Positions 2,339 through 53,165 are shown, counted from the first letter of the stretch. The stretch: 64,000 bases of DNA from a virus (IMGVR_UViG_3300028832_000001:100007-164006), one strand, 5' to 3'. The notes: generated by a model from the letters alone, not told the origin. A program made the numbers and translations.

Positions 2339-2360
2339 ATATACTATTTATAGTTTCTGA

Positions 2361-2418: not shown

Positions 2419-3894
2419 TTAGAAGTATTTGCCACCATCGAAATCAGTTTTTGGTTTTAGACCTTGTTTAGAGACTCTATAATAGTAGTCATAATCGCCT
2501 TCTTTATATTCTTCAGGATTAGAAGTATAGTTTCCTTCTTCATTGAACTGCGAATAATAGGCAGAATATGGAACATTATACTGGTCACGTAAGGTTTTAT
2601 TACCAAAAGAGATTGTTTGGTCGACATTATGACCGAAACCAGATAATGACATATATTCTTTTTCAACAAGCCATTCATTGGTGTATTCAACACCCCAAAC
2701 TTCTGGATTAAAACCAGATGTTATATCTTCTGGGTCTAAATACATTGGTTTATAACCAATAACATCACCTTTCTTGACATGCTGTTCATTTATGATACAG
2801 TCAGCAGATGCATAAATTGGTCGTGTGTGCAAGATTGGTTTATCTCCACTAACTGTTTCTGTAGCAGGAATCCAAATATTTGTTACCTTTGTAAGAAGCT
2901 TTGCATCTTCTTCATAAGTAGTCAATTCATCAGTTTCCCTATAATCATATGTCGTTATGTATGCAGAAGTTTTTATTCCTTTATATTCATACGGGACAAG
3001 TTCAGTCTTTGGATTACCGTTCAATACATAAGTATGACCAACCTTTGTCTGATAAATCTTGCTGAATTCATAAGGAGTAGTTAAAGAACCGTCTTTATTA
3101 CCAAATGTTGCAGCATGATAAAGATAATCTCCTTTATTTAAAGTAATATAGGTATTAATCTTTTCAATAATCTGTGCATCTTTAATCGGCTTATAAAGGA
3201 ATGCTTCCATAGTAAAGTTAAACGAAACCTTAATCTGTCTCCAGTCTTCTTCACCCATGGATTCACTTTGAATGTCCCATGTCATAGTTTCAAGTTTCAT
3301 CTTGATACTTCTACGTTTATTGAAGAACCAGAATTCCTTAACATCAAAGAATGCAGCAGGCTGGAATCTTACAGCGATTTGTTCGACAATCTGTTCAGCA
3401 TCTGTCATTTTTTCGCAGTTTGCTTCCATTGAAACAGAAATATTATATGGAACCGGTTGAACATCAGACCAGAACTTATCTTGTTGGTCACATACCAATC
3501 CAGCATTTTCCAAATCCTTGTTATAGAATGCACGAGTTTCGTAAATGCCTTTTGCTCTTTCAGTTGCAAATTGCATACTATCCAATCTATAAGTAAGATT
3601 TGGTAAACTTATATAATATTTGTTACCAGATTCTTGTTCAGTTCTGAAGTCATGGGACTTGTTTCTTGGACCGAATTTAATCGGAACATTGATTGTTTTG
3701 ACTGGTTCACCGAACTTATTATAACGAATAACTTTCAATTCGTTAAAGAAATTCTCGAACCCGATAAACAGACTACGCATTGTGTCTGCATAGAAATAAT
3801 TTTGAGGATAACCGAAATTAGGAGCTCCATCAGCAGTTCCTTTCCAATATCCATGTAAACTTGGGTCATACCCTTCTTGTGTGTAATTTGCCAT
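2419..3894 (-). CDS. virion structural protein, unassigned (late gene)
   Basis: 491-aa ORF. TATAAATA at 3916-3923 (minus) lies 21 nt upstream of its ATG with an SD-like AAAGG. Co-transcribed direction with the tape-measure-like ORF. Confidence 0.4.
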   Translation of the reverse strand: MANYTQEGYDPSLHGYWKGTADGAPNFGYPQNYFYADTMRSLFIGFENFFNELKVIRYNKFGEPVKTINVPIKFGPRNKSHDFRTEQESGNKYYISLPNLTYRLDSMQFATERAKGIYETRAFYNKDLENAGLVCDQQDKFWSDVQPVPYNISVSMEANCEKMTDAEQIVEQIAVRFQPAAFFDVKEFWFFNKRRSIKMKLETMTWDIQSESMGEEDWRQIKVSFNFTMEAFLYKPIKDAQIIEKINTYITLNKGDYLYHAATFGNKDGSLTTPYEFSKIYQTKVGHTYVLNGNPKTELVPYEYKGIKTSAYITTYDYRETDELTTYEEDAKLLTKVTNIWIPATETVSGDKPILHTRPIYASADCIINEQHVKKGDVIGYKPMYLDPEDITSGFNPEVWGVEYTNEWLVEKEYMSLSGFGHNVDQTISFGNKTLRDQYNVPYSAYYSQFNEEGNYTSNPEEYKEGDYDYYYRVSKQGLKPKTDFDGGKYF

Positions 3895-3923: not shown

Positions 3924-3951
3924 GAATTTAAAGTCTTTTTATAAATATATT

Positions 3952-4959: not shown

Positions 4960-5845
4960 TGAGGTCGTAGAATTAACTAAAGAACAAATGGATGAATATG
5001 TAAAATGTTCTACAGATATTTTTTATTTTTCCAAATACTTTTATATTTTAAGTGATGAAGGTGAAGCGCCAATACATTTAAGAGAATACCAAGAACGTAT
5101 AGTTCGCTGTCTTGTTGGAAAATATTATGATAAAGAAGGTTCTATTAGAAATAATAGAATAATAATGCAAGGGCGACAGACAGGCAAGACTACTCTGGCC
5201 ACATTATATATTTTATGGTATGCACTTTTTAATGGAGACAAAACTATCGCTGTTCTGGCTAACAAGGAAGACCAAGCAAAAGAAATTATGTTGAGAATTC
5301 GCTCAGCTATTTTGAAACTTCCACTTTGGTTACAACAGGGAATTAATCCTGATAGAGGCGGTTGGTCAAAAGAAAGTATCGGTTTTGATAATGGAACTAA
5401 GATATTCTGTGCTGCTTCTGGTTCTTCTGCTATTAGAGGTAAATCTGTTGACTTGATGCTTGTCGACGAATTTGCATTCTTGCCTGAAGAAGAAGCTAAG
5501 GACTTTATTAAGTCAGTTTTCCCTACACAATCTGGTAGAAAGGATGCTATGATGATTCTTATTTCTACTCCGCATGGTATGAATGAATTTTATAACATCT
5601 GGATGAAAGCTATTTCTGGTGCAAGTTCTTATGTTCCTGCAAAGATTCAATGGTATGAAATTCCTGGAAGAGATGAAGCTTGGAAGAAGAGAATGATTCG
5701 AGACTTCGGTATTCAGATGTTCCAACAGGAATATGCTTGTTTAACTGGAGAACATAAAATAACAGTTCGATCCGAAGAAGGAATCGAACTAACGGAACCG
5801 ATTTCAAAACTATATGAACTTTGGATGGACGGTTTCTTAAGATAA
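4925..5845 (+). CDS. terL: terminase large subunit, ATPase domain only (T4 gp17 N-domain-like); nuclease domain not encoded contiguously
   Basis: Walker A (QGRQTGKTT) and Walker B (DLMLVDEFAF) are present. The order of blocks (YQERIV..., ILISTPHGMNEFYNIW, FQQEYACLTGE) parallels T4 gp17 residues ~130-360. The ORF stops right after the ATPase domain at a bidirectional terminator. Confidence 0.7.
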   Translation: MFQKTAELRGHNEVVELTKEQMDEYVKCSTDIFYFSKYFYILSDEGEAPIHLREYQERIVRCLVGKYYDKEGSIRNNRIIMQGRQTGKTTLATLYILWYALFNGDKTIAVLANKEDQAKEIMLRIRSAILKLPLWLQQGINPDRGGWSKESIGFDNGTKIFCAASGSSAIRGKSVDLMLVDEFAFLPEEEAKDFIKSVFPTQSGRKDAMMILISTPHGMNEFYNIWMKAISGASSYVPAKIQWYEIPGRDEAWKKRMIRDFGIQMFQQEYACLTGEHKITVRSEEGIELTEPISKLYELWMDGFLR

Positions 5846-5848
5846 AAA

Positions 5849-5884
5849 TAAAATCACCTTTTTGAAGGTGATTTTTTATTTTCG
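5849..5884. terminator. bidirectional rho-independent terminator (aaatcacctt-tttg-aaggtgattt) between terL and convergent GT gene
   Basis: 10-bp perfect inverted repeat flanked by A-run and T-run. Sits between convergent genes. Confidence 0.6.
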
Positions 5885-6739
5885 TTTAAACGGATTTAAT
5901 AATTTTGTATATTCATTTTCAGGATAATCTATTGATTTATCAGTAGGTTGATCCTTATATTTTAAATTTTCTACACTATCTATTCTTGTTCTATTTAATT
6001 TTTCTTCCCATTCATCTAATGAACGATGATAATAATGGAACAATCTAATATCACAATTTGATACATTTATTTTTGCTTTTGGTCCTACAACTTTTGGTTC
6101 AAATGTTGTATTATTTGGTAGTGTTACAGGATAATTATTAATAAAATGTGGATATACAAATTTTATATGGTCCATAGTATTTTTTAAAAATCTATGAATA
6201 AATGGTTTTACATCAACAAATGTTTCTTGATTATATTTTTCACTGACATACTTACAATCATCAATCATTGGTTTTTGTCTTGTTTTTGGTGTTTTAGATG
6301 ATTTATAAGAAATATTTGTTCTAGGAACACCAAATTGATAAATATCATTTTCATTTAATTTTTTTAAATAATCATTTATTGTTTTATATTTTGTTTTATC
6401 AAACCATAGATATTCGTCATCATCACAGAAAAATTGATATGTGTATTTATTATTTGTATTAACATATCTAGTATAATAATATTGTTGAACATTTAAAAAT
6501 TTAGATTTATCATATAATAAAACAACATCTACTTTTTCATTATCTTTAAATTTTTCTTTTATATTACAACAATTACTTTCATTATCTACAATAATAATAT
6601 GGTCAAATCCACACCAATTTAAATAGTGGTCAACCCATGAATCTATATCGCATTCTTTATATAATTTTGTTATTAATATAACTTCAGAAGAAATTGGTTT
6701 TGTTTTATATGGATTTTTCAATTCACTAGTTCTAAACAT
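5876..6739 (-). CDS. putative glycosyltransferase, GT92 (DUF23)-like GT-A fold
   Basis: Motif WVDHYLNWCGFDHIIIVDNES resembles the GT92 signature (HYxxxGxDHxxIYDNxS). A later HYYHRS also fits. 287 aa. Confidence 0.4.
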   Translation of the reverse strand: MFRTSELKNPYKTKPISSEVILITKLYKECDIDSWVDHYLNWCGFDHIIIVDNESNCCNIKEKFKDNEKVDVVLLYDKSKFLNVQQYYYTRYVNTNNKYTYQFFCDDDEYLWFDKTKYKTINDYLKKLNENDIYQFGVPRTNISYKSSKTPKTRQKPMIDDCKYVSEKYNQETFVDVKPFIHRFLKNTMDHIKFVYPHFINNYPVTLPNNTTFEPKVVGPKAKINVSNCDIRLFHYYHRSLDEWEEKLNRTRIDSVENLKYKDQPTDKSIDYPENEYTKLLNPFKRK

Positions 6740-8824: not shown

Positions 8825-8832
8825 ATTATTAT

Positions 8833-9654
8833 TTATATCTGATAATTATTATATAAATTACGGTATCTTTCCATTATTAAATGTTTTCCTTTAATATGGT
8901 CAAATAATCCGTCAGTTCTTTCATGTGCTTGATGCATAATTTCAATATCTTTTGAAATTCCAACATTTAAACCAGCATACATAGCATCTATACCCATAGC
9001 TACATCTTCATAACCCCAGCCTTTAGCAAATGTTTTACTGTCAAATAAGGCATTATCTATACCATATTCTTTTTTCATAAATTCTATGTGTTTTAGTAAT
9101 CCTGTTTTAGTTATACCGAAATTACATGACCAGCCAATCATTCCAGTAAGCATTAAATCCATTTTTTCATCAAATGTTTTTGCATTATTCCATGCTTTTA
9201 TTGCACCAGAAGTTATCCTAAGATCGTCATAATTTAATGGTCTTTTTTGCCAAAGTTCATCCATATTAGCGGTCAATAAATCAGATGCTGGAACTTTTAT
9301 GTTATCGATTGGTGTATGTCTTCTAGTTCCAAAGACTAAATCATATTTTTCTAATAATTTTTTATAATTTACAATTACTTTTTTATTTGCTAGCCAAGAA
9401 TCACCATCTATAAAAATTAATGCATCTGTTTTATTATTAAGAAAATATGATATTACAGAATTTCTATTAGTGCATCTTCCAGGATTTTTACTATTATCAA
9501 TTATATAAACATTTTTATAAAAATTAACTGGCATTTTACCATCTGATAATACATATATCATTGTAGGTATTTCAGTTTGATTATATATTGAAAAAATGGC
9601 TTTACTTAAAGATTCTTCTTGATTATGATTTGTTATTGCTATTGTTATATCCAT
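8833..9654 (-). CDS. glycosyltransferase family 2 (GT-A fold)
   Basis: N-terminal IAITNHNQEESLSKAIFSIYNQT matches the GT2 opening motif. DGD (DxD) lies at ~aa 83. 273 aa. TATAAATA sits 4 nt upstream of the ATG. Confidence 0.6.
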   Translation of the reverse strand: MDITIAITNHNQEESLSKAIFSIYNQTEIPTMIYVLSDGKMPVNFYKNVYIIDNSKNPGRCTNRNSVISYFLNNKTDALIFIDGDSWLANKKVIVNYKKLLEKYDLVFGTRRHTPIDNIKVPASDLLTANMDELWQKRPLNYDDLRITSGAIKAWNNAKTFDEKMDLMLTGMIGWSCNFGITKTGLLKHIEFMKKEYGIDNALFDSKTFAKGWGYEDVAMGIDAMYAGLNVGISKDIEIMHQAHERTDGLFDHIKGKHLIMERYRNLYNNYQI

Positions 9655-9662
9655 GACATATT

Positions 9663-9698
9663 TATAAAAAGAAAACCGTCTTTATTCAAGACGGTTTA
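9663..9698 (-). terminator. rho-independent terminator for the 1014-aa fiber gene (aaaccgtctt-tattc-aagacggttt)
   Basis: 10-bp perfect inverted repeat. On the minus strand it is followed by TTCTTTTT. Confidence 0.55.
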
Positions 9699-9715: not shown

Positions 9716-12700
9716 TTATTGAAATGACCATGTACTTGTTGAAGCATCCCAATGTAAATCACCTTGACCCATCGCAGTAGTAAGGAAATCAAATAGCTTA
9801 CCAAGCATGCTATTAGGATCAGCTTTATATGTTTTTGCGGAAACTGTACCATCAGCAGAAACAATCATTGCATTTGATAATTCTACAACATTTGGATTTT
9901 CAATATCTGCATAATTTACCTTATTACAATTTGGGTCAGATACATCATGATTTGCACCACTAAAGAAATAACCGTCATATTCATATGCTTTAAGGCGACC
10001 ATTACCAATAGCAAATATTATACCACTATTTGGTATTGCTACCATCTCATCATTAATCCAAGCAGATGTAGTTCTTACACAACCATCTACTTTTTGGTTA
10101 TACTGACCCATAATAGTTTGATGCTGATTTGCTTTTAAGTATGCGCCAATAGTTGTGGAATGATGTCCTCTATTAACGTTACCTATACCCATACCAATCT
10201 GACAAGAACCGCTTAAACCATTATTATAAGTACCAATTAAAATATTATTACTATAATAAAGGTCACTATCACTAAATAATGTATTTCTATCACCAATTAA
10301 TACATTAGAATTATATTTTTTAGAAACACCATTGAGAACACCAAACATATAGTTTCTATCATTATGATCACTAGTATGTCCTAGTATATTTCCATGATCT
10401 GTAATACCAAATAATGTACCTGATTTAGTTGCACCAAAATAGTTATCAGTACCAATAATAGCATTATCAGTAGTAGTACCAGCAGATGTTTTAATATAGT
10501 TATTAGCACCATATACGAAGTTACGGTCTAATCTGTTATTAGTTGGTGGGACAGTAATTTCTAATCTATTACCTACACCATAAACGAAGTTTCTACTTGC
10601 ATTATTACTGTCTGTAGTTAAGTGCGCAGTTTCTGAGCCTAAATAACCAACACTATTCATTTCACCTATAACATAGGTTCCAATTGAATTTTGAAGAGTA
10701 TTACCAATACCACAGAGTAAGCATTCACAAAGATATTTAGCAATAAAGTCTCCATAGATAAATGAACGGTTTGTATACATAGCAACAGAATCGCTAAGGT
10801 CATTATAAGTATCGGTTTCATGCATATTACCAAAAATATAAGTTTCATTGGTATTATATGCAGCTCCTTTAAATATTATATTATTTTTTAAGCATTGAGT
10901 AGCGCCATTTAAGCTAGAACAAAAATTATTCGGTTTATCTGCTCTATAATATCCTTTGAATAAGAAGTTTTCTGTGGTATATCTGTTATTTGCTGAAAGG
11001 ACAGAACCGAATAATACATTTTGTGTAAATACTGAATTAACTTGTTTTTCAGTATCAAATGTAGCAGTAACTTGTGAATTAATTATAATATTATCAGCTA
11101 GATATTCAACACCAGAGAAACTTAAAGTATCACAGTTTTCAGAACCTTGAGAATTTAAGAAGATATTTTCGGTGAAATATCCCTGTGCAAATGTTGGTGC
11201 ATATGCTTTCAAGTCAGTATTATGAAGAATATTAGCATTAGCTATACAAAAATGATCAATTTCAACTTTTCTGGAATTAAACATTATGTTTTTACTAAAT
11301 GAACCATTAAAATAAGGCCAACCAATATGTTTATGTAATATTATCTCACCATCATTACCAAGACTTTCCAGATTATATAGGAAGTTATACTCAATATTAC
11401 CTTCTTCTGCAGAGAATGTATCAGGAAAATCTACACCATGAGCATAGTTTCCGTGTATTGTGGTTGCATATATAGATGTTGATCTGATATATTGTAAATC
11501 ATAAAGTTTGTTATCATCAAATGAATGTGAAAATATATTTACAGAACCATTTGCATGATTTATAATATTATTTGTTCCATAAGTTGAAATAAGTTTAAAA
11601 TTACCAGGACTACCAACATTTTCAAAGTAATTATTATATAATGAACCACTTAATTCAAACCTACCGCCACCACCGGCAACATGTTTAACGGTATTACGAT
11701 TAAACTCACCACCACCTGAAATAGTTACATTAGAGACATCGTAAAATTCGTTTCCAATAATTCCTGGCGATCCTTCATTGTAGTTTCTTATATATTTTAC
11801 TCCACGAGCATGAGTAAAATCATTATCTTGAAATGGCATTTCAACAAATTGATTACCATAATAAGTGCTACGAATATTGCCGTAATCTATTTTTACTGTA
11901 GCATTAGTAAATTCATTGTGTTCAAAACCATACTTATACCAATCATCTGGTTTATTAACACCAACAATAGTAGAAAAATATATTTTATTAAGACCTACAC
12001 CAGCATCAGAATGACCAAGTGAAAAGTCATAGCCAGAAAAAAGTGATAAAAATGCAATATTATTATGGCCATCAATACGCGAACGAATATTGAAATTTTG
12101 ATAACCGATACTTCTAGTGTCAAATTTTACCGTATTACTATAATCTGGCAAATAATAATTATTTGCATTTAAGTTAGTAACACCTATTACGATATTTTCA
12201 CCACCAGATGCTAATACTCCTTTACCAATTGCAATATCATAGTTACGAATAGCAGAGTTTTCAAGACCAAATGCTAATGTAAAACCATCGTTATTCTGGC
12301 TAGTACTATCTAATTCCAAATCACTTTGTGTGGTTTCGGAATAGTTTTTAGAACCGAAAATGAAAGCGTTTCTTGTAGTGTTGGCAGAGTTATCGTTACC
12401 AACAATAAAATTCTGCGTATTATAAACTTTTGTATTATTGTCTTTAATTAATTTATCAGTGCTTTTAGATTCATTACCATTACCAATAATGATAGAATTA
12501 CCATGTGCGGAGTTACCAGAACCAATATAGTAATTATTATCGCCTTCTATATCAGTATCATGATCTTCAGACCAGTTTTTCCAGCTATTGCTGGCACCTT
12601 CAAGATCTTGCAATAATTCTATAATTTTATCATCACGATTCTTTAACGGTCCAATTGTATTTGCTTGTAACCAGTTACCATCAGCAACGGTATTTCTATC

Positions 12701-12760
12701 CCAGCTTGAAACTGGCAATTCCTCATTAAATTCTTCTACGGTAGGTATATTAGTTGCCAT
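9716..12760 (-). CDS. tail fiber / tailspike with Asn/Gly-rich beta-helix-like repeats
   Basis: The 1014-aa product has degenerate short repeats rich in N, G, S and T (e.g. GNSIIIGNGNESKS, NFIVGNDNSANTTRNAFIFGSKNYSE). This is typical of right-handed beta-helix fibers. A TATAAATA lies 25 nt upstream with an SD-like AAGGAC. Two GT genes lie immediately downstream. Confidence 0.55.
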   Translation of the reverse strand: MATNIPTVEEFNEELPVSSWDRNTVADGNWLQANTIGPLKNRDDKIIELLQDLEGASNSWKNWSEDHDTDIEGDNNYYIGSGNSAHGNSIIIGNGNESKSTDKLIKDNNTKVYNTQNFIVGNDNSANTTRNAFIFGSKNYSETTQSDLELDSTSQNNDGFTLAFGLENSAIRNYDIAIGKGVLASGGENIVIGVTNLNANNYYLPDYSNTVKFDTRSIGYQNFNIRSRIDGHNNIAFLSLFSGYDFSLGHSDAGVGLNKIYFSTIVGVNKPDDWYKYGFEHNEFTNATVKIDYGNIRSTYYGNQFVEMPFQDNDFTHARGVKYIRNYNEGSPGIIGNEFYDVSNVTISGGGEFNRNTVKHVAGGGGRFELSGSLYNNYFENVGSPGNFKLISTYGTNNIINHANGSVNIFSHSFDDNKLYDLQYIRSTSIYATTIHGNYAHGVDFPDTFSAEEGNIEYNFLYNLESLGNDGEIILHKHIGWPYFNGSFSKNIMFNSRKVEIDHFCIANANILHNTDLKAYAPTFAQGYFTENIFLNSQGSENCDTLSFSGVEYLADNIIINSQVTATFDTEKQVNSVFTQNVLFGSVLSANNRYTTENFLFKGYYRADKPNNFCSSLNGATQCLKNNIIFKGAAYNTNETYIFGNMHETDTYNDLSDSVAMYTNRSFIYGDFIAKYLCECLLCGIGNTLQNSIGTYVIGEMNSVGYLGSETAHLTTDSNNASRNFVYGVGNRLEITVPPTNNRLDRNFVYGANNYIKTSAGTTTDNAIIGTDNYFGATKSGTLFGITDHGNILGHTSDHNDRNYMFGVLNGVSKKYNSNVLIGDRNTLFSDSDLYYSNNILIGTYNNGLSGSCQIGMGIGNVNRGHHSTTIGAYLKANQHQTIMGQYNQKVDGCVRTTSAWINDEMVAIPNSGIIFAIGNGRLKAYEYDGYFFSGANHDVSDPNCNKVNYADIENPNVVELSNAMIVSADGTVSAKTYKADPNSMLGKLFDFLTTAMGQGDLHWDASTSTWSFQ

Positions 12761-12892
12761 ATTAAGTCCTTTTTTAATCTTATCTTATTTATAATATTTT
12801 CTGGACATTATAAAATATTATTTTAAAGAAATTTCAGAATTTATTTAAAATAAGTTTACAAAATTCTATAAACCTTTTATATTTGTTTCATA

Positions 12893-13160
12893 TTTTTTAC
12901 ATTAAAGTCCTATTACTGGCTCGGAGTTCAACTCAATGAATTGTCGGATAAGTTTAGGCTAGTTGGAATCATAGGTGTGGTTCCAGGTAAAAACTAATTC
13001 ACCATCGACGTATTACTATAGCATGTAATACTTTAAGCCGCCATTGGTATTGAAAGATGTAGCTGGAGTACAGGATGACCGACCCATAAGCTTTCAAATA
13101 AATCCACTTAGTCGAAGACAGATGATCTTTTGCCTATTTTCCTAAATAGGCTTATTGTCT
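12893..13160 (+). ncRNA. candidate structured non-coding RNA (GC-elevated island with own promoter-like and terminator-like elements)
   Basis: The ~400-nt ORF-free gap is visibly GC-richer than its flanks. A TATATTTG -10-like element lies at ~12879-12886. A perfect 8-bp hairpin (gcctattt-tcct-aaataggc) at ~13131-13152 is followed by TTATTG. No tRNA cloverleaf was found by eye. Confidence 0.25.
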
Positions 13161-13211
13161 CAGAACAGATATTTTGAACGTGTGTGTAGATAAGTTTAAT
13201 ATAAATAATAT

Positions 13212-13682
13212 ATGAATTTTAAAGATTATGTAGATAAACACTTAGATTTATTAAATGAGGTCAAAGGTATTGATTTAATCAATAATTTTAAAAAAGTATT
13301 CCCATTTTCTAAGGAAAGTAATCTTACAGTAAAGCATTTTAATATAAAAGGTGAAGATACTGATACATTAGAAGCTACTGGTACAGTTTCTTCAGAATCT
13401 GAACCAGGTAATTCATATGTTTGTATGGCAAAATTTCATAGAGAAAATAATGAATTGCCATTTTCTTTACAAAATATGTGTAAAGTTTCTTGTAATTGTA
13501 ATGCTTATAGATATAATTTAAGCCATCCAAATTCCAAGAATTCTTCTCAAGCAGAGCCTATTCCAGGATATGCAAGTATAGCTAACACAGTAAGAAACCC
13601 GGATAAAAATGTAGGTGTTTGCAAACATTTATATGCATTTCTGCACTTTTTATATGAAAAAGGAATTATAAGAAATAACTAG
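13212..13682 (+). CDS. SWIM-type zinc-finger protein
   Basis: CxCxnCxH arrangement (SCNCNAY ... GVCKHLYAF) near the C-terminus. 156 aa. Confidence 0.4.
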   Translation: MNFKDYVDKHLDLLNEVKGIDLINNFKKVFPFSKESNLTVKHFNIKGEDTDTLEATGTVSSESEPGNSYVCMAKFHRENNELPFSLQNMCKVSCNCNAYRYNLSHPNSKNSSQAEPIPGYASIANTVRNPDKNVGVCKHLYAFLHFLYEKGIIRNN

Positions 13683-14066: not shown

Positions 14067-14942
14067 ATGATAAATTATAATAATCCTAAATTAAGAGTCC
14101 TTAATTGTACACACTATGACATGGACGGTTGCGGTGCTTCTATTGTCTTAAAGAATTTCTATGAAGATGTTATTGTAGTTCCTGTAACTTATAACACGGA
14201 ATGGAAACTTCTTGATGACATTCGTCAATATGAAGGAAAGTATGATGCAATTATTTGCACAGACTTCTATCCAGCACAGACAATCAATGATTTAAGAAAG
14301 TTGTCAACTACATTAGTTCTTGACCATCATGAATCGGTTGTCGATAAGAATAACGATACTGATATTATTATCAATACGTTATATTCTGGAACTAAGCTTG
14401 CCTATAAGTTTGTCAGTAAGTTCAAAGACGTTTCATATCTTGAAAAGCTAGTTGATATTATTGACGATTATGACATGTTTAGACTGAAGATTCCAGCAAG
14501 TGTATATTTCAATAACCTTTTCTGGGAAATGGGTCATAAGTGGTTTACCAGACGTTTCATTACTGGAAATACAGTAATGTACCCTGAAGAAAAGCGATAT
14601 TTTATCGATGCCAAGAAAGAATTTGATAAAATGTATGAAACACTTGAAATTACAGATTTAGCTAGAAACGGTGTATTCTTTGAAACAGACCGATTCCATT
14701 ATGAATGTATCGAAGCACTCAAGAAAGACGGTTATAAGTGGTTTGCAATCAAGAATAAAGGTAATATTTCTGTTCGTTGTGATGATATTGATTTAACTGA
14801 AATTTTCAAGAAACTTGGTCGCGGAGGTGGTCATGCACATGCGGGTGGAGTTCCTCTTACTAAGACAGATAATGTTGCAGAATGGGTAAGAAAAATTGAA
14901 TACTTTATCGATGATTATTACATGAATATGATTGATGATTAA
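14067..14942 (+). CDS. DHH/DHHA1 family phosphoesterase (NrnA/RecJ-like)
   Basis: DHH motif (VLDHHES) with upstream Asp-rich motifs (HYDMDGCGA, ICTDFY). DHHA1 GGGH motif (LGRGGGHAHAGG) at the C-terminus. Confidence 0.7.
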   Translation: MINYNNPKLRVLNCTHYDMDGCGASIVLKNFYEDVIVVPVTYNTEWKLLDDIRQYEGKYDAIICTDFYPAQTINDLRKLSTTLVLDHHESVVDKNNDTDIIINTLYSGTKLAYKFVSKFKDVSYLEKLVDIIDDYDMFRLKIPASVYFNNLFWEMGHKWFTRRFITGNTVMYPEEKRYFIDAKKEFDKMYETLEITDLARNGVFFETDRFHYECIEALKKDGYKWFAIKNKGNISVRCDDIDLTEIFKKLGRGGGHAHAGGVPLTKTDNVAEWVRKIEYFIDDYYMNMIDD

Positions 14943-15933: not shown

Positions 15934-16051
15934 AGTATTTTCCTTAATTTTTATTATATTTATAAAAAATACGGATAAATGTAAAATTTTATTTACAATA
16001 ACCAGAAAATTTCTATATTTTATATGATATAATATAAATAGAATAAAAAAT

Positions 16052-17533
16052 ATGGTTGATATTGTAATTGAAAAATCTAACGAATCTTTTGCTCAGCTAC
16101 ATTGTGACGAAGAAATAAATCATGAAATAAATAACCTTTTTTCGGCTTTTGCTCCAGGTTATAGATTCAATCCAAGATATGTAAATCACCTCTGGGATGG
16201 AAAAACCAGAGTCTATTCTCCTATTACACAGTTACTTCCAATAGGGTTAGTTTCTAACCTTATGAAGTGGTGTGATACTAAGAAATATACGTATAAAATG
16301 GATTTTTTCGATGATTTTACTGATGAAATTGATAAGGATGAATTAAGAGAAACTATCAATGGATATGTAAAAAAATTCGATGTAAGAGATTATCAGTTTA
16401 AGGCAGTTTATGAAGCATTAACTAATAAGAAAGGTATTTTGCTTTCTTGTACTGGTTCTGGTAAATCTTTGATGATTTATTGCATTTTCAGATATTTGCT
16501 TGAAAAGAAGAAATTGAAACATTTATTGCTTATTGTTCCTAATACATCGCTCGTAGAACAGATGTATACAGACTTTATTGATTATGGTTGGGATAATATC
16601 GAAGATTCTGTTGAATTATTGTATTCTGGTAAGAAACCAACTTATAGATTACCAGTTTTGATTTCCACTTGGCAAAGTTTACAAACTCAAGATAAGAGTT
16701 TCTTTGATAAGTATAATTGTGTTCTTGTTGACGAGTGCCAACAGAGTAAAGCAAACGTTCTTTCAAAAATTTTGAAAGCTTCATTCAATGCAGAATATAA
16801 GATAGGAACTACTGGTACTTTACCTAAGGAATTATCTGACCAGTTAGTTATTAATTCGGTCATTGGTAACGTTATTTTTGAATTGAAATCCTCTCAACTT
16901 ATCGATGAAGGATATTTGGCTAAAATGTCTGTTGCTGGTATTTTCTTGAAATATCCAGATGAATTTATTGCAGAAAATAAGAATAGAACGTATCAAGAAG
17001 AAGTAAAGATGGTCGAGGAATATGAGAATAGAAATGACGTCCTCAAGTTTATTATTGACCATTCGAAACCTACTGATAATATGCTCGTTTTATTGACTCA
17101 TAAGGCACATTTACAGTCTACTATTGAATATTTAAAGAAGTTATATCCTGATAGAAATGTAAGCGAAATTAGTGGTGATATTAAGACTAAGACTAGAGAA
17201 AATATTAGAACAGGAATTGAAAATGAAGAAGGTTCGATAATTGTTGCTACTTATAAAACAATGGCAGCAGGTGTCAATATTCCTAAATTACACAGTGTCG
17301 TTCTTTATTCTAATAGTAAATCCAGAATCCAAGTTTTACAGTCTATTGGTAGAGGATTGAGACTTCACAAGACTAAAAATAAGGTCATTATTTACGATAT
17401 TATTGACGATTTAAGTTATAAAACAAGAACTGGAAAAACCAAGAAAAATTATTGTATGCAACATTACGATGAAAGATTGGAGTTCTATAAAGAACAGAAT
17501 TTCCCAGTAATTACGATAAATCGCAACATTTAA
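16052..17533 (+). CDS. SF2 DEAD/DEAH-box helicase (UvsW-like / RecG-like)
   Basis: Motif I (CTGSGKS), motif II (LVDECQQ) and motif VI (QSIGRGLR). 493 aa. Confidence 0.7.
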   Translation: MVDIVIEKSNESFAQLHCDEEINHEINNLFSAFAPGYRFNPRYVNHLWDGKTRVYSPITQLLPIGLVSNLMKWCDTKKYTYKMDFFDDFTDEIDKDELRETINGYVKKFDVRDYQFKAVYEALTNKKGILLSCTGSGKSLMIYCIFRYLLEKKKLKHLLLIVPNTSLVEQMYTDFIDYGWDNIEDSVELLYSGKKPTYRLPVLISTWQSLQTQDKSFFDKYNCVLVDECQQSKANVLSKILKASFNAEYKIGTTGTLPKELSDQLVINSVIGNVIFELKSSQLIDEGYLAKMSVAGIFLKYPDEFIAENKNRTYQEEVKMVEEYENRNDVLKFIIDHSKPTDNMLVLLTHKAHLQSTIEYLKKLYPDRNVSEISGDIKTKTRENIRTGIENEEGSIIVATYKTMAAGVNIPKLHSVVLYSNSKSRIQVLQSIGRGLRLHKTKNKVIIYDIIDDLSYKTRTGKTKKNYCMQHYDERLEFYKEQNFPVITINRNI

Positions 17534-20032: not shown

Positions 20033-21412
20033 ATGACTGATATTGAATTTGAACAAATAATTATTAAGACAATTTATGCAAATCCTGAAGTTTCTGGTAA
20101 GATAATTCCAGAACTTGATACTGGTTGGTTCACAAATGTTGACCACAAATACATCGTTAATGCCATTTTGGAATATAATTCTAAGTTTTCTGCAGTTCCT
20201 AATGCGATTGAAGTTAAAAGACTTTTGTCTGATCAGAGAACAGTAGATGAATTCGAAAAGTGCATGTCTATTAACGATGCAGATGTTAATACACCATATA
20301 TTCTTGATGAAATTCAGAATTTCATTAGAAAACGTTTAGGTAGACAAGTATGTATGGATTATAACGAATATTGTTCTACAGGTAAGTCTAAAGGTAGTTT
20401 TGCTGATGAAATGGCTTATGCTGAAACATTTACGTTTGATACCAAGGTTGGTTTCTCATTCTTCGAAGAACCAGAAGTAATCTTTAATGACATTATTACT
20501 AATGAAAGATTATATCCTACTGGTTGTAGAGCAATCGATGAAATGATTGGTGGTGGTTTACATCCTAAGTCTATTTCTTTGATTATGGCTCCTACCAACG
20601 TTGGTAAAACTTTGTTTATGTGTTCTATCGCATCTGCATTATTACTTGCAGGTTTGAGAGTTCTTTATGTTTCATTCGAAGACTCTGAAGTTAAGATTGG
20701 TCAAAGAATCATGCAGAATTTGTTTGATATTAACCAAACAGAACTTAGAGCTTTGTCTAAGGATGCATATAAGAAGCTTTGGATGAAGAATACACAACAG
20801 ATTGGTCATAATAAGCTTGTTATTAAGGAATATTCAGAAGGTTGTATTAATGCACTTGCATTGAAGGCATTGATTAGAGAACTTAGAGACAAGCGTGGTT
20901 TCGTTCCTGATGTATTGATTGTTGACTATATCGGATGTATGATTCCTAATGGACGACCAAATGCAAATGAAAACGATAACTCCAAGTTAAGAGAAATTTG
21001 TGCTCAGGTTAGAAGTATTGGTATGGAAATGGATATTCCAGTTCTTTCTGCAGCACAGTCTAACAGAGGTGGTTATGGTAAGGGTGAAATTGGACTTGAT
21101 GATGCAGCTGACTCTTTCGGTCAGACAATGAAGGCAGACGTTATCTTTGGTGTTACTCAGTCTCCAGAACTTAAGGAAGGAAGTATGTATCTGGTTAAGC
21201 TTCTGAAGACCAGATATGGTCAACCAAAGTGTCCATTAGCTACGATTGGTGTCGATATTGGTAAACAGCGTATTTTTGACTTGAAGACATTTAATAATGC
21301 TGCAGTTCCAACACAAGGTGCCAATATATTTAATCAACCACAAGAGCAACAATCTGTTTCTGCTTCTAATATTGAAGTAACACAGAATAATTTAAACACT
21401 TTTGAATTTTAA
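20033..21412 (+). CDS. DnaB-family replicative helicase (T4 gp41-like)
   Basis: Walker A (IMAPTNVGKT) with LRVLYVSFEDS. LIVDYIGCM parallels T4 gp41 IIIVDYLGIC. Late motifs LSAAQSNRG and KLLKTRYG are present. 459 aa. Confidence 0.8.
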   Translation: MTDIEFEQIIIKTIYANPEVSGKIIPELDTGWFTNVDHKYIVNAILEYNSKFSAVPNAIEVKRLLSDQRTVDEFEKCMSINDADVNTPYILDEIQNFIRKRLGRQVCMDYNEYCSTGKSKGSFADEMAYAETFTFDTKVGFSFFEEPEVIFNDIITNERLYPTGCRAIDEMIGGGLHPKSISLIMAPTNVGKTLFMCSIASALLLAGLRVLYVSFEDSEVKIGQRIMQNLFDINQTELRALSKDAYKKLWMKNTQQIGHNKLVIKEYSEGCINALALKALIRELRDKRGFVPDVLIVDYIGCMIPNGRPNANENDNSKLREICAQVRSIGMEMDIPVLSAAQSNRGGYGKGEIGLDDAADSFGQTMKADVIFGVTQSPELKEGSMYLVKLLKTRYGQPKCPLATIGVDIGKQRIFDLKTFNNAAVPTQGANIFNQPQEQQSVSASNIEVTQNNLNTFEF

Positions 21413-24756: not shown

Positions 24757-24795
24757 GAAGAGAAGATTTCATATCTTCTCTTTTTATTATAAATA
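24757..24795 (+). promoter_or_regulatory. terminator hairpin (aagagaagat-ttcat-atcttctctt) followed by repeated element TTTTTATTATAAATAATGTA containing TATAAATA
   Basis: The same 20-nt string recurs at 35151-35170 after another terminator hairpin. TATAAATA is at 24788-24795, only 4 nt before the ATG. Confidence 0.4.
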
Positions 24796-32806: not shown

Positions 32807-32919
32807 TAAGAAATAGATTAAATAAAAAGATCAGACTTATGTCTGGTCTTTTTGTTGTATTTTTAAAAAATTAAAATATTTTTACATTTAATAAATAAGA
32901 AAATAGAAAAATACTATAT

Positions 32920-33795
32920 TTGTTATTGATTATGAGAACAATCCAGACAATACAAAATCAATATGATAATATCATGAAGCCATTAGTATGGTCGGATAAA
33001 GTTGCAAAGAATTTTTTGAATTGTATAAAAAATCCAATTGTAGTAGAAAAGAAAGACATGATACCGCAATGGAAGATTTGTACTGTTAGCGACACTAAAA
33101 GACGAACTGAAAGTATTGGTTCTACTGATGTTTTAATTTTAGATTATGATGATCCGAATTATAGCATAAAGGAATTTGAAGATAGTTTTAGAGAATATTT
33201 CTATGTATTACATACTTCACATTCTTATGATGGAACAAACCAGAAGTTCAGAGTATTTTTGTTTCTTGATAAAGAATATGATATAAATAGAATGTTTTAT
33301 AAATGTTTTAATCAAGCATTTAGTCCATATCATTTTCTTGTAAATTATTTTCCACATGCAGATAAGGCATCATTCGTTAGAGCACAGTTCTTTAAGGTTC
33401 CTTGTGTAAAATATAAAGGTGCACCTTATTATTACAGTTGTCATAACGGTAAGTTATTTGACCCTGCTAGTGCAATCGGGTTTGAATTTAGAATGGCTTA
33501 TGAATATTGTGTAGAGAAACAAGAAGAACATCTTAAGCAACTTGAAAAACGAGCAAAATGGTATCGCAAGATGCATGGTTCAATCGATTTAACGAATGCA
33601 AAACAATATATAAATGAAAAGATTGAAACATGTGAAGCTGGTGGTAGACATATGCAGATTTTAGGTCTGGCATGTTGGTTTAAGAAGATTGGCGGAACGT
33701 TTAAAGAATTTGAGGAAATAATGCCATCATGGGCTGATAAAGGTTTCCATAAACAGATGGAACATATTAGACATGAATGGGATAGATTTAGGTAA
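32920..33795 (+). CDS. archaeo-eukaryotic-type primase with PriCT-1 C-terminal domain
   Basis: VLILDYDD (DxD), FYVLHTSHSYDG (SxH-like) and the C-terminal GGRHMQILGLACWFKKIGG (PriCT-1 G.R...L..A......G pattern). A TATATTTG promoter-like element lies upstream. Confidence 0.5.
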   Translation: MLLIMRTIQTIQNQYDNIMKPLVWSDKVAKNFLNCIKNPIVVEKKDMIPQWKICTVSDTKRRTESIGSTDVLILDYDDPNYSIKEFEDSFREYFYVLHTSHSYDGTNQKFRVFLFLDKEYDINRMFYKCFNQAFSPYHFLVNYFPHADKASFVRAQFFKVPCVKYKGAPYYYSCHNGKLFDPASAIGFEFRMAYEYCVEKQEEHLKQLEKRAKWYRKMHGSIDLTNAKQYINEKIETCEAGGRHMQILGLACWFKKIGGTFKEFEEIMPSWADKGFHKQMEHIRHEWDRFR

Positions 33796-39177: not shown

Positions 39178-42100
39178 ATGAAAAAGATAATCGGAATATT
39201 ATTAGTTTTAGCTGCATTTGTTTTTTCTGCAGACTATAAGCCGTTTAACTTTGAAACTATCCCACAAGATTCTGCAAGTCAACAGGATCAATTTGATTAT
39301 ATGCTTCAATATAAGTTATATGGTCATGATTTTATCAAAATGGGAAATGATGTTCGTATTCCAGACAAGTCAGGTTGGAATGGTACTGTAGGTAATATTA
39401 CTTCTAATGCAAGATTGACCTTGGGCGGTCCGATTCTTGCAAATGGTAGTATTTCTATGGGTGATGGTCCAAATAATATTACTGGACCAGTTCGCTCAGT
39501 CGATTTTGATCTTGGAAATGTAAATAATTCCAAAATCGCAAGCCCTGTTTGCTTAAGCGGAACCGCAAATGCTAATGCATTGTCTGCGATTGAAGATCAT
39601 AAGACTTATTCTTTCGATGCAAACATTTGTAAGGACAGCGTTCCTGCTGCACCTACAAATCTTTATATGCCGATTGTTGATTGGGATAATCTTGGTGCTG
39701 ATGTTAAGTTGGATGATATTGTTTTAAGTGGCAATGATGCTACAGATACTATTTTTGTTCCTAAAGGTGAAGGCGCATATAAGATTTTAATTGATAAGAT
39801 TCAGTTTGGCCTTGGCGGAACTAATGCAAGCCATTTGTATGTTAAGATGCAAGATGGCGGTAGATTGACCCAGATTTTCGTAAAGAATTTTATTTATGGA
39901 AATCATGCTACAATTCAGGTTGTTTATGATACTGACAGTGGAAGCGTAGTATTGAATCAGGACCAATATCGTGGTAACTTGATGTTCTATTCTAATAATG
40001 TTATCAGTTTTGATAATATGGACTATGCTCCTATTCAAGGTTCATTTATTTCTACTGATTCAATTTTCTTGGGAAGAAACGTTAATATTTCTGGTCAGTT
40101 ATTGACTAATAAGCTTGAAATTGGAAATGATATTGATGGTAAAAACTTCAGATTTGTTAAATTCGACCCTGATACAATCGATGTTAAGCTTGATAAGTAT
40201 GGTGGTTTGAGAGAAAATGATTCTACTGTTATTATTCCTATTGAACTAAGTGATACTGCTACTATCGCTGTATATTTTAGATATTGTTTTGATTTGAAAG
40301 ATGGTGTAACTGTTGAAGATTTTAATATTCCGCCTACATTCCCTATTTGTAACATCGATCAACCGAAAGAAGTATCTATTCCTATCGGTTCAAAGATTCC
40401 AAGTGATCCAATTAAGGTAAATGTTAAAGTCGATACATTGACAGAAAATGAATATCTTGTAATTAAGATTGATAGCATTTCTGGTGCTATTCTTCCTGAT
40501 GGTAAGACTGAAGGAGAATTAAAGATTAAGATTATTGACGCTCCTATTGGACATGTTGAATTTGATACTACAAAGACATATGAGTTTGAGGAAAATAAAC
40601 TTGGTGAAGTAGATGTAATCAAGATTTTAAATGGAACTGAAAATACTCGTTTCCATCTTGATAGTGCATATACTGATAGATATGAATTGGATAGCTTGAC
40701 TGGTAAGTTGACACTTATTGGTGAACCATTAGATTATGAAAAGGCTGCAATCGATGTTATTAAGGTTACATTGACTGATACTGGCAATGTAAGTGTAACT
40801 CGTAATATTCCTATTACAGTAATTGACGTTAATGAAGCACCTACTATCGATGATGTAACTGCTAATCTTCCGGAAAATCTTATTCATCCATTCATGGTTG
40901 AAAAGTTAGTTGCAAAAGATCCAGATACTAAGACAACATTTACTCAAAATGTTTTCAGTATGCTTGAAGGTGATACAAGCTTATTTAGAGTAGATTCTGA
41001 TGGTGAAATTTGGGCAAAGAAGACATTTGACTATGAAACTGATCAGAAAACCTATACTTTGAAGGTTTTGGTTCATGATAAGACTAATCCAGCATTGAAG
41101 GATAGTGCTATTGTTACTGTTAATATCACAAACAGCAATGATGGTCCTAAGTTTGACAGAAATGATACTACATTCCATGTAAATGAAAATGAACCATTTA
41201 AGGATAGTGTAAAGGCAACTGACCAGGATGGTGATAAGATTACTTATTCTATCATTGGAAGTGTTCCATTCAAAATTGATTCTACTGGCGTAATTACTTC
41301 TACTAGAACATTTGACTATGAAAAAGAAAAAGAATTTACATTCAAGGTCATTGCTGATGATGGTAAAGCAAAAGATACAATGACTGTAAATATTATAGTA
41401 GACAATGTAAATGAGCCTGTTCATACCAAAGATACAACTTTTGTTGTAGATGAAGGTAAAACTGGTGAAATCGGTAAAGTCAAAGGAGAAGATGAAGATG
41501 GAAAGCCTGTTAAATTTTCTTGCGATGATAGTGTGCATTACAGCATCGATACTAATACTGGTATTCTTAGACTGGTAGACCCATTTGACTATGAGATTAC
41601 AAAATCTGATACCATAAAGGTATTTGTTACTGATAGTCTATTTACAGATACTGCCATAGTTATTATTAATGTTAATAATGTAAATGAACCTCCTGTATTA
41701 CAGCCAAATGATTCTCTTACAGTTCCAGAAAATTGTAAGAATTGTATTGTTGGTATTATTACAGCAGTTGACCCTGACAGTGATAAGGTAATTTACGAAG
41801 TTAAGGAACCTGGTTTCACAATCGATACAAATGGAGTATTAAAGCTCACTGATCCTCTTGATTATGAGAAAACTCCAGAAGTTAAGATTACAGTTATTGC
41901 AAAGGATTCTAGTGGCGCAGCTGATACTGCCACCTATATAATTAAGATAACTGATATTAATGAACCAGTCCATGTTCAAGATACAACTTGTTCTGTAAAG
42001 GAAAATTATACTGGTAAGGTTTGCAAGATTACAGCAACTGATGAAGATAAAACAACTCCTAAATATATAATTACCGATACTACAAATTATTCTATCGATT

Positions 42101-53115: not shown

Positions 53116-53165
53116 TATTTATAAGATAAAAACAGATTATATCCGATTATTTTGAGTTATAAATA
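53116..53165. promoter_or_regulatory. divergent pair of T4-late-type TATAAATA motifs (53116-53123 minus; 53158-53165 plus)
   Basis: Each lies 19-24 nt upstream of its gene start, driving the paralog operon leftward and the 1128-aa fiber operon rightward. Confidence 0.4.

Follow-up and report, generated by a model that had tools for sequence, protein, structure and literature searches.

What does a phage keep in a long gap between two genes that holds no long reading frame? The question is raised by positions 12761-13211 of a 64,000-nucleotide (nt) stretch of viral DNA (IMGVR_UViG_3300028832_000001:100007-164006, all of which we call the window), where 451 nt, the longest of the window's 13 intergenic regions of at least 80 nt, separate a minus-strand open reading frame (ORF) of 1014 amino acids (9716-12760) from a plus-strand ORF of 156 amino acids (13212-13682). 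A first-pass annotation, made by a model from the sequence alone, had seen here a G+C-rich island that might encode a structured non-coding RNA with its own promoter-like and terminator-like elements, and had recommended an Rfam scan and a covariation analysis of related phages. Both analyses support it: the scan returned a full-length match to RF02947 (cow-rumen-2 RNA) above the gathering score, and homologs show compensatory changes in the core and 5' helices together with a pseudoknot that passes permutation tests. Sequence comparison shows the island to be a gene for a structured non-coding RNA of RF02947, carried by a phage that has T4-like genes. Conservation extends well beyond the catalogued 106-nt motif, which is therefore the core of a larger RNA; what is added here is the phage carrier, the full extent, a 5' domain, the pseudoknot, a 3' hairpin (Pf) with its flanking repeats, and a multi-paralog organisation. 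The RNA thus joins a known family, the extended architecture is newly described, and the finding is solid, not startling.

Which RNA family does the island belong to?

RF02947 is the sole Rfam 15 match in the whole window at gathering thresholds. It lies at 13004-13110 on the plus strand and scores 102.8 bits against a gathering score of 66 (E 1e-18 in the 64-kilobase (kb) window, 1.3e-20 in a local search). The match spans model positions 1-106 of 106, is not truncated, and has posterior probabilities near 1 throughout, with two non-standard pairs flagged. The unpaired nucleotides that are conserved in the family, namely the UAGC loop, AGCCGCCA, GAUGUAGC, ACAGGAUGACC, and UAAGC, are all present at 13019-13095. 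When 17 diverse homolog loci were scanned against Rfam, all 17 matched RF02947 at 87-109 bits, and no other Rfam family covered the flanks of their cores.

The other named candidates fared differently. GOLLD, ROOL, HEARO, RNase P, group I and II introns, signal recognition particle RNA, and 6S RNA gave no match in the window at the gathering score, nor in 12600-13400 at E≤10, where a permissive Rfam scan returned noise only beyond RF02947; ARAGORN found no tRNA or transfer-messenger RNA (tmRNA) genes in the window. The likening to GOLLD and ROOL in the first-pass annotation is therefore not borne out by any model match, and the same is true of the HEARO, tmRNA, intron, and tRNA checks that it proposed. 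Because every applicable test of RF02947 membership came out positive and those of the other named families negative, we assign the RNA to this known family.

Several resemblances seen by eye were considered and dropped. The segments AAAGUCCUAU (12904-12913) and AUAGGCUUAU (13146-13155) recall the P4 strands CR-I and CR-V of RNase P, which is ruled out: the 5' segment varies across homologs without compensation in the invariant 3' segment and pairs locally in helix Pa (described below), there is no space for P1-P3, and no RNase P model matches. Short word likenesses to tmRNA, 4.5S RNA, 5S RNA, group II domain V, and the CsrA-site consensus are unsupported by ARAGORN and Rfam, and an alternative pairing resembling domain V is not conserved. 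Mimicry of a tRNA 3' end by AGCCGCCA was likewise set aside, as L010-type RNAs carry AGCCCGUCA at that place (L numbers denote loci in our collection).

RF02947 is a bioinformatically defined motif from cow-rumen metagenomes, of type "Gene; sRNA." The family is said to originate in the Weinberg et al. 2017 survey, whose main text does not contain the name. A literature search for cow-rumen-2 or RF02947 found the name only in the two versions of the Rfam 15 paper, which lists it among the families with a structure improved using R-scape, and found no published function.

How is the core built?

The core coincides with the RF02947 motif (13004-13110, plus strand). It begins with the linker AUCGAC (13004-13009) and hairpin P1 (13010-13016/13025-13031, loop UAUAGCAU), which varies with compensation among homologs, and continues through a conserved junction strand, UUUAAGCCGCCA (13032-13043), into a long helix P2, with the internal loop GAUGUAGC/UAAGC, and P3, with the cap GG-AUGA-CC. 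In an RNAalifold analysis of 27 homologs, 9 of the 13 pairs predicted for P2/P3 have compensatory changes. The word UCGAAG occurs just before P1 and again just after the core. A UCGA/UCGA pairing, with 3-4 pairs in nearly all clusters of homologs, may possibly close the core into a three-way junction; no informative covariation across clusters was found for this closing helix.

How far does the RNA extend?

Relatives were collected by exact-pattern scans with conserved core words, which returned 36 viral, 11 genome, and 107 metagenome loci. After chance matches in G+C-rich coding DNA were dropped, 127 true copies remained, comprising 100 unique sequences in 35 clusters (92% identity). Upstream of a shared core and Pf, the copies differ in their 5' region, of which there are three kinds, called here classes A, B, and C; the window belongs to class A. 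Conservation and covariation go beyond the Rfam model on both sides: ~100 nt upstream, where helices Pa, Pb, and Pc and the pseudoknot lie, and 50-80 nt downstream, where Pf and the repeats lie. The alignments show conservation from the promoter at 12855-12883 to at least 13161, probably continuing to about 13187, and covariation lies within this range. Together they show an RNA that starts near 12900 and reaches at least 13161, and probably about 13187; its length of roughly 270-290 nt is ~2.5 times that of the catalogued motif, and in other lineages the full extent is up to about 350 nt. It is important to remember that, outside the Rfam core, the structure was derived with MAFFT alignments, inspection by eye, RNAalifold, and our own permutation tests, not with R-scape.

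The 5' domain (12902-12963, plus strand) lies outside the Rfam model and consists of Pa (12907-12917/12951-12960) enclosing Pb (12922-12930/12937-12946), whose loop, CAAYYCAAUG, is conserved. For Pa/Pb, RNAalifold predicts 17 pairs in 32 distinct homologs, and compensatory changes occur in 9 of these pairs; the paired fraction of cells is 97.2%, against 30-38% in slid controls, and 58 cells are changed on both sides. This degree of covariation was reached by 0 of 500 shuffles, a figure that somewhat overstates significance because the clusters are mutually related, so that controls with swapped or slid partners are the fairer comparison. A covariance model of the 5' domain (R1) gave 59 hits in 82 loci, one per class-A locus, always on the same strand as the core and 100-200 nt upstream of it; its single match in the window, at 12902-12963, comes from a sequence that was in the training set.

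Next comes hairpin Pc (12963-12986, plus strand), with the stem 12963-12970/12979-12986 and the loop AUAGGUGU (12971-12978), which is present at the same position in every class-A cluster and is variable in sequence. In the class-A clusters the Pc loop pairs with the 4-5 bases directly 5' of the AUCGAA linker of the core. In the window the strands of this pseudoknot are GGUG (12974-12977) and CACC (13000-13003), the latter directly before the linker AUCGAC. Across clusters there are ~18 different complementary combinations of Pc loop and pre-core strand, for example, GAAC/GUUC, GGUAC/GUACC, ACUGU/ACAGU, AAUCG/CGAUU, AUUAG/CUAAU, GUUCG/CGAAC, GACGC/GCGUC, ACUCC/GGAGU, and GAUGC/GCAUC. With the Pc loop defined without reference to its partner, four or more contiguous pairs form between the loop and its own partner in 20 of 24 clusters (13% for partners swapped between clusters), and five pairs form in 12 of 24 (1.2% for swapped partners). 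A looser and wider search found an exact 5-mer complement in 21 of 35 clusters, again against 13% for swapped partners. Such covariation would be equally compatible with pairing within one molecule and between molecules.

The 3' domain starts with a linker (13111-13131, plus strand) that is conserved in homologs and holds the second UCGAAG (13112-13117), the left repeat ACAGAU (13118-13123), and a U-rich run. It leads into hairpin Pf (13132-13151, plus strand), which as RNA reads GCCUAUUU-UCCU-AAAUAGGC, with the pyrimidine-rich tail UUAUUGUCUC to 13161. The first-pass annotation had placed a hairpin and U-rich tail at about 13131-13160, and rightly so: as DNA, Pf reads GCCTATTT-TCCT-AAATAGGC followed by TTATTGTCTC, and it is the only terminator-like site in the scan, with 0.5 expected from shuffles. 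The stem has eight pairs, three of them G-C, and the U tract is interrupted. Nearly all homologs keep UUCCU as a loop motif and AUAGGCU as the 3' strand, the hairpin appears in the RNAalifold consensus, and compensated variants (AGUCUAG/CUAGGCU, CCUAUC/GGAUAGG) occur in other lineages. Judged from these features, Pf is a possible intrinsic terminator of the RNA. By eye, and by analogy with L014-type RNAs, which have a 13-bp helix at the equivalent place, AGACAG (13116-13121) could pair with UUGUCU (13155-13160) around Pf.

The last conserved stretch (13165-13187, plus strand) holds the right direct repeat ACAGAU (13165-13170) and, after it, the conserved AUUUUGAACGUGUGUG; this is the probable 3' end of the conserved RNA. 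Each RNA has one and the same 6-9-mer to the left and to the right of Pf, at fixed positions, but the sequence of this repeat varies by lineage (ACAGAU, ACGGAAUAU, GCAGGU, GCAGAA, CCAAAAG, CAAAAAG, CUAAAAG, AGCAAAAGA, GUAAAAG, GUGAAG). The left repeat lies 15-17 nt from the core end in the short type of 3' domain and ~30-33 nt from it in most long-type clusters. We also considered, and did not retain, a conformational switch driven by competition of the two repeats for a single partner: by eye L026 and L001 would fit it, but duplex energies are weak (-2 to -6 kcal/mol) and no consistent common partner for the repeats was found. A tertiary contact between AGCC in the junction strand and GGCU in Pf was also dropped: the matched insertion AGCCC/GGGCU of L010-type RNAs is suggestive, but the UGCC variants of L013 and L083 are uncompensated.

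Where are the relatives found?

Nearly all copies come from the ruminant gut, from IMG/VR and Joint Genome Institute contigs, AUXO (cow-rumen) contigs, and contigs of goat- and yak-gut metagenome-assembled genomes (MAGs). The contigs range from 1.3 to 424 kb, several exceeding 140 kb. Class A has Pa/Pb with a sigma70-type promoter ahead. In class B (8 clusters; for example, L043 at ~1029-1300 on the minus strand, L063, L076, L082, and L097), the same pre-core position pairs with a different upstream element, GGAG-NNNNN-GCA, through GUCAG/CUGAC, ACUGG/CCAGU, GAUGG/CCAUC, and GCCAG/CUGGC, and A/T-rich elements similar to TATAAATA, the T4 late-promoter consensus, precede the RNA. Class C (2 clusters, L055 and L071) has a third 5' region with an exact TATAAATA ahead. 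The class B and C 5' domains, ~150-170 nt long and mutually unrelated (for example, GGUCUUCCUAAAGG..GAGGCACCUAACGG in B and AAUCCCUG..AGCCAACUCAAUGG in C), match no Rfam family.

One genome may hold several of these RNAs. MAG RGIG2231 has three paralogs: one 191-kb contig holds a window-type and an L002-type copy with ~56 kb between them, and a class-B copy is on another contig. A second MAG has the same set; the window has one copy only. Two or three copies are seen in goat-gut bins labelled Methanobrevibacter (L037/L042 on JAFQXD010000042.1, 191 kb; L038/L041 on JAFRFB010000097.1, 173 kb; L043; L046), and other copies lie in bins labelled Succinivibrionaceae, Bacilli, Clostridia, and Coprovivens. 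Because these labels conflict and the neighbouring genes are of phage type (baseplate hub, SbcC-like protein), we read the contigs as mis-binned phage contigs; those in the Methanobrevibacter bins are probably phage genomes of low G+C that were wrongly assigned to an archaeal MAG.

Two further observations concern single contigs. L126 (Ga0326512_10201635) and L149 (Ga0233366_1004998) each carry 5' and 3' halves that belong to different RNA types; they are probable assembly chimeras joined inside the conserved core, as their P2 strands no longer pair. The contig of L083 (Ga0265298_10000069, 148.6 kb, presumably a phage) has a tmRNA gene at 5818-6175 on the minus strand (Rfam 134 bits; ARAGORN tag ANTYAMAA*), ~3.3 kb from its cow-rumen-2 copy.

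How might the RNA be transcribed?

The best sigma70-type site in the region lies at 12855-12883 on the plus strand, with TTTACA (-35), a 17-nt spacer, and TATATT (-10), matching 10 of 12 consensus positions. It overlaps TATATTTG (12878-12885), the -10-like element that had been reported at about 12879. Alignments show both hexamers and their spacing kept upstream of class-A homologs, and transcription would start at about 12890-12900. Reading TATATTTG as part of a Bacteroidota -33/-7 promoter was rejected, the site being equally near the sigma70 consensus. Shine-Dalgarno sequences are little used in Bacteroidota, and the downstream genes in homologs also have them, for example, AAAGGTGA.

The sequence TATAAATA occurs 27 times in the window, against an expectation of 14.8 ± 3.9, and 0 of 100 shuffles reach this count. 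At least 18 copies stand just upstream of an ORF start in the same orientation, and most copies are a few to a few tens of bases away from one; examples of the 27 sites are 2345-2352(-), 3940-3947(+), 8830-8837(-), 9659-9666(-), 12786-12793(-), 13200-13207(+), 24788-24795(+), and 53158-53165(+). Given a T4-like start site, the several copies only 4-6 nt from an ATG would give leaderless or near-leaderless late messenger RNAs. The RNA gene itself is flanked by a divergent pair (12786-12793 on the minus strand, 13200-13207 on the plus strand), the second of which ends 4 nt before the ATG at 13212; the pair could serve the flanking genes. Elsewhere, two intergenic regions are conspicuously A+T-rich, 15934-16051 (G+C 0.12) and 32807-32931 (G+C 0.15), and the former, between a 312-amino-acid ORF and a UvsW-like helicase gene, also has a divergent TATAAATA pair (15957-64 on the minus strand, 16033-40 on the plus strand).

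We propose that the RNA would be transcribed rightward from 12855-12883 as its own, probably early, unit and would end at Pf or a little beyond it. Four features point to a separate transcription unit: the promoter conservation, the TATAAATA elements on either side, copies that stand alone and antisense to their neighbours, and the varied neighbours of the family.

Is the RNA tied to particular genes?

The nearest ORFs of the 127 copies belong to more than 45 unrelated families, among them a baseplate-hub-like protein, an SbcC-like nuclease subunit, GroEL, and a phosphoesterase. The neighbour genes form no coherent set, and the consistent 5' untranslated region (UTR) position expected of a riboswitch or leader is not seen. 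In 17 copies the downstream gene is convergent, and 13 of these 17 are lone units antisense to both neighbours, some of which are then followed by ordinary intrinsic terminators (L014, L055, L064, L010). In L002-type and related lineages, TATAAATA and a Shine-Dalgarno sequence stand between the RNA and a downstream gene of late type. No tRNA genes were found near 45 loci. Antisense targets of AUAGGCU or AGCCGCCA were considered and rejected, as the window shows no enrichment of sequences complementary to the invariant single-stranded motifs.

In the window itself, the gene names given to the two neighbours by the first-pass annotation, a fiber gene and a SWIM-finger gene, could not be confirmed: a Pfam/PHROGs search of both ORFs gave no match at E≤0.001. 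The 156-amino-acid protein encoded at 13212-13682 does show a SWIM-type CxC...CxH pattern (SCNCN...VCKHLY), and its orthologs stand after the RNA in 10 loci.

What might the RNA do?

The architecture has three parts. A 5' domain (Pa, Pb, Pc) is docked by the pseudoknot, through the Pc loop, onto the four bases 5' of the core; the core has the hairpins P1 and P2/P3 joined by the conserved single strand; and the 3' domain is arranged around Pf. We think that such an RNA, compactly folded, may act in trans, its invariant unpaired nucleotides serving to bind a conserved protein or complex, with AGCCGCCA, GAUGUAGC/UAAGC, ACAGGAUGACC, and UUCCU..AUAGGCU as candidate contacts. It would then work neither by antisense pairing nor as the leader of one particular gene. 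Trans action through such a putative partner is the weakest step of this proposal and our best guess, drawn mainly from the lack of a tie to any particular gene and of enrichment of complementary targets. Taken as a whole, a stand-alone, structured, and probably trans-acting RNA is the explanation that we favour, with a good deal of room left for others.

Some of that room is made by observations that weigh against the favoured explanation. Of 124 copies, 104 have a same-strand gene close downstream, and in the window the ORF at 13212 begins 25 nt after the conserved RNA. With only three G-C pairs Pf is a weak terminator, and a canonical terminator lies within 160 nt after Pf in 5 of 33 cluster representatives. 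For these reasons (a weak Pf, few terminators, and an adjacent ORF) read-through into the 13212 ORF is possible for the window copy, and hence a role in cis, either by antitermination or with Pf as a conditional terminator. Both ends of the RNA are placed from sequence features, the partner protein is purely postulated, and the model does not explain why the direct repeats around Pf change in parallel. Single-sequence folding energy, finally, is no better than for shuffled sequence (z = -0.66) and is uninformative.

The most serious competitor is a cis-acting leader, in which the RNA is the 5' UTR of the downstream gene and controls it, either with a core that senses a ligand or protein and Pf as a conditional terminator, or as an antiterminator of the put/EAR type. 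The RNA is promoter-proximal, it precedes a same-strand gene often 10-75 nt from the start codon, a terminator-like hairpin sits at its 3' end, few copies have a further terminator downstream, the core is riboswitch-like in having variable, covarying stems around invariant junction and loop nucleotides, and several copies per phage genome would recall putL and putR of HK022. Yet the downstream genes are mutually unrelated, 17 copies face a convergent gene (13 of them lone antisense units that leave no space for a downstream ORF), and in the window as in other lineages the promoter-like TATAAATA stands between the RNA and the next gene. Pf, moreover, is near-invariant, unlike typical expression platforms, and no consistent alternative pairing that would toggle it was found, the weak repeat duplexes mentioned above sharing no common partner. 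We regard a leader as unlikely, though by no means negligible. A catalytic role is possible; a self-processing RNA, or a ribozyme with another activity, in which the core would be catalytic and the repeats flanking Pf would mark two equivalent cleavage or ligation sites, strikes us as improbable. It would suit the size, the pseudoknot, the many invariant unpaired nucleotides, and the parallel change of fixed-position repeats, as expected for two sites of one active centre, but no Rfam ribozyme family matches even at E≤10 and no guide-like region complementary to the repeats was found.

Two readings dispense with an RNA-level function, and both lie further from the data. PeSL cassettes of T4-type phages are reportedly promoter plus stem-loop modules, and a regulatory or recombination cassette of this kind, spread among intergenic regions, would account for several copies per genome at gene-module boundaries, each with a promoter. 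Compensatory changes in at least five helices and the pseudoknot show selection on RNA structure, and the apparent recombinants L126 and L149, which break P2, are better read as assembly chimeras; we hold a cassette to be very unlikely. The other reading is that the island is the remnant of a decayed gene, the refuting alternative named by the first-pass annotation, or a chance compositional feature. The annotation's claim of elevated G+C holds, as the gap has the highest 100-nt maximum of the 13 intergenic regions (0.43, against at most 0.33 in the other 12), and in 200-nt windows G+C peaks at 0.395 at 12900-13099 with flanks of 0.215-0.31. Its claim that no ORF exceeds 20 codons does not hold, since there are five of 23-33 codons (12999-13097, 13016-13087, 13033-13107, and 13152-13241 on the minus strand and 13044-13145 on the plus strand) and none longer. 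These five short ORFs are all that could speak for decay, and homologs carry 1-2-nt indels inside them, so that they are not conserved reading frames; the Rfam E value of 1e-18, indels of lengths other than multiples of three among 127 conserved copies, and a lack of similarity between the gap DNA and deposited phage genomes leave this alternative with next to no probability.

There is also a bolder way to take the evidence, which we consider rather doubtful: the catalogued 106-nt motif may be no more than the core of an unrecognised class of large phage RNAs, ~270-350 nt long, with three domains and a pseudoknot, which rumen phages with T4-like genes would carry in at least three paralogs and which would act as a ribozyme or as the RNA of a ribonucleoprotein central to infection. 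If so, the paralogs would share the core and Pf and differ in their 5' domains (A, B, C) and promoter types (sigma70-like; TATAAATA or similar), and the parallel-changing repeats would be two equivalent sites for one active centre or partner.

What kind of phage carries the RNA?

Judged by its gene content, the carrier is a large phage of the myovirus type with T4-like genes. Among the products encoded in the window are a tail-sheath-stabiliser-like protein (2419-3894), a DHH phosphoesterase (14067-14942), a UvsW-like helicase (16052-17533), a DnaB/gp41-like helicase (20033-21412), and the anaerobic ribonucleotide reductase NrdD (45189-47660). A plus-strand ORF of 1602 amino acids (39178-43986) contains at least four cadherin-type repeats (Pfam Cadherin, E 1.5e-42) and bacterial Ig-like domains, and its product may be a phage adhesin or decoration protein.

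How does it compare with known systems?

The packaging RNA (pRNA) of phi29 is a phage RNA of early transcription with a loop-to-strand pairing that covaries between phages, but we see no resemblance in sequence or secondary structure. No T4-type packaging motor is known to use RNA. The put RNAs of HK022 and the EAR element are cis-acting processive antiterminator RNAs; they resemble the window RNA and its relatives in being promoter-proximal, in occurring in several copies per genome, and in lying on the same strand as downstream genes, whereas the window RNA is much larger and some of its relatives are lone copies that face convergent genes, with terminators directly after them.

ROOL and GOLLD, like the RNA described here, are structured RNAs without a known biochemical function that are encoded by phages or prophages. 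GOLLD is larger than ROOL, and both are often found beside tRNAs. ROOL averages 581 nt and was first seen in rumen data (Weinberg et al. 2017). The window RNA, in contrast, has ~280 nt, matches neither model, and belongs to a family with no tRNA gene near the 45 loci.

The closest comparison is with cow-rumen-2 RNA itself. All helices and conserved unpaired nucleotides of RF02947 are present in the window, and the homologs likewise come from the ruminant gut; the differences are that the Rfam model covers 13004-13110 only and that we find a phage carrier and at least three paralogs in related genomes. Cow-rumen-2 was an orphan entry, with no known carrier, defined extent, or function, and can now be placed in large rumen phages with T4-like genes. 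A bare motif thereby becomes a defined and testable construct, with ends to clone, helices to mutate, and phage lineages in which to search for a partner protein. Should the RNA be catalytic or a ribonucleoprotein component, it would add to the few large phage RNAs for which roles are now being established.

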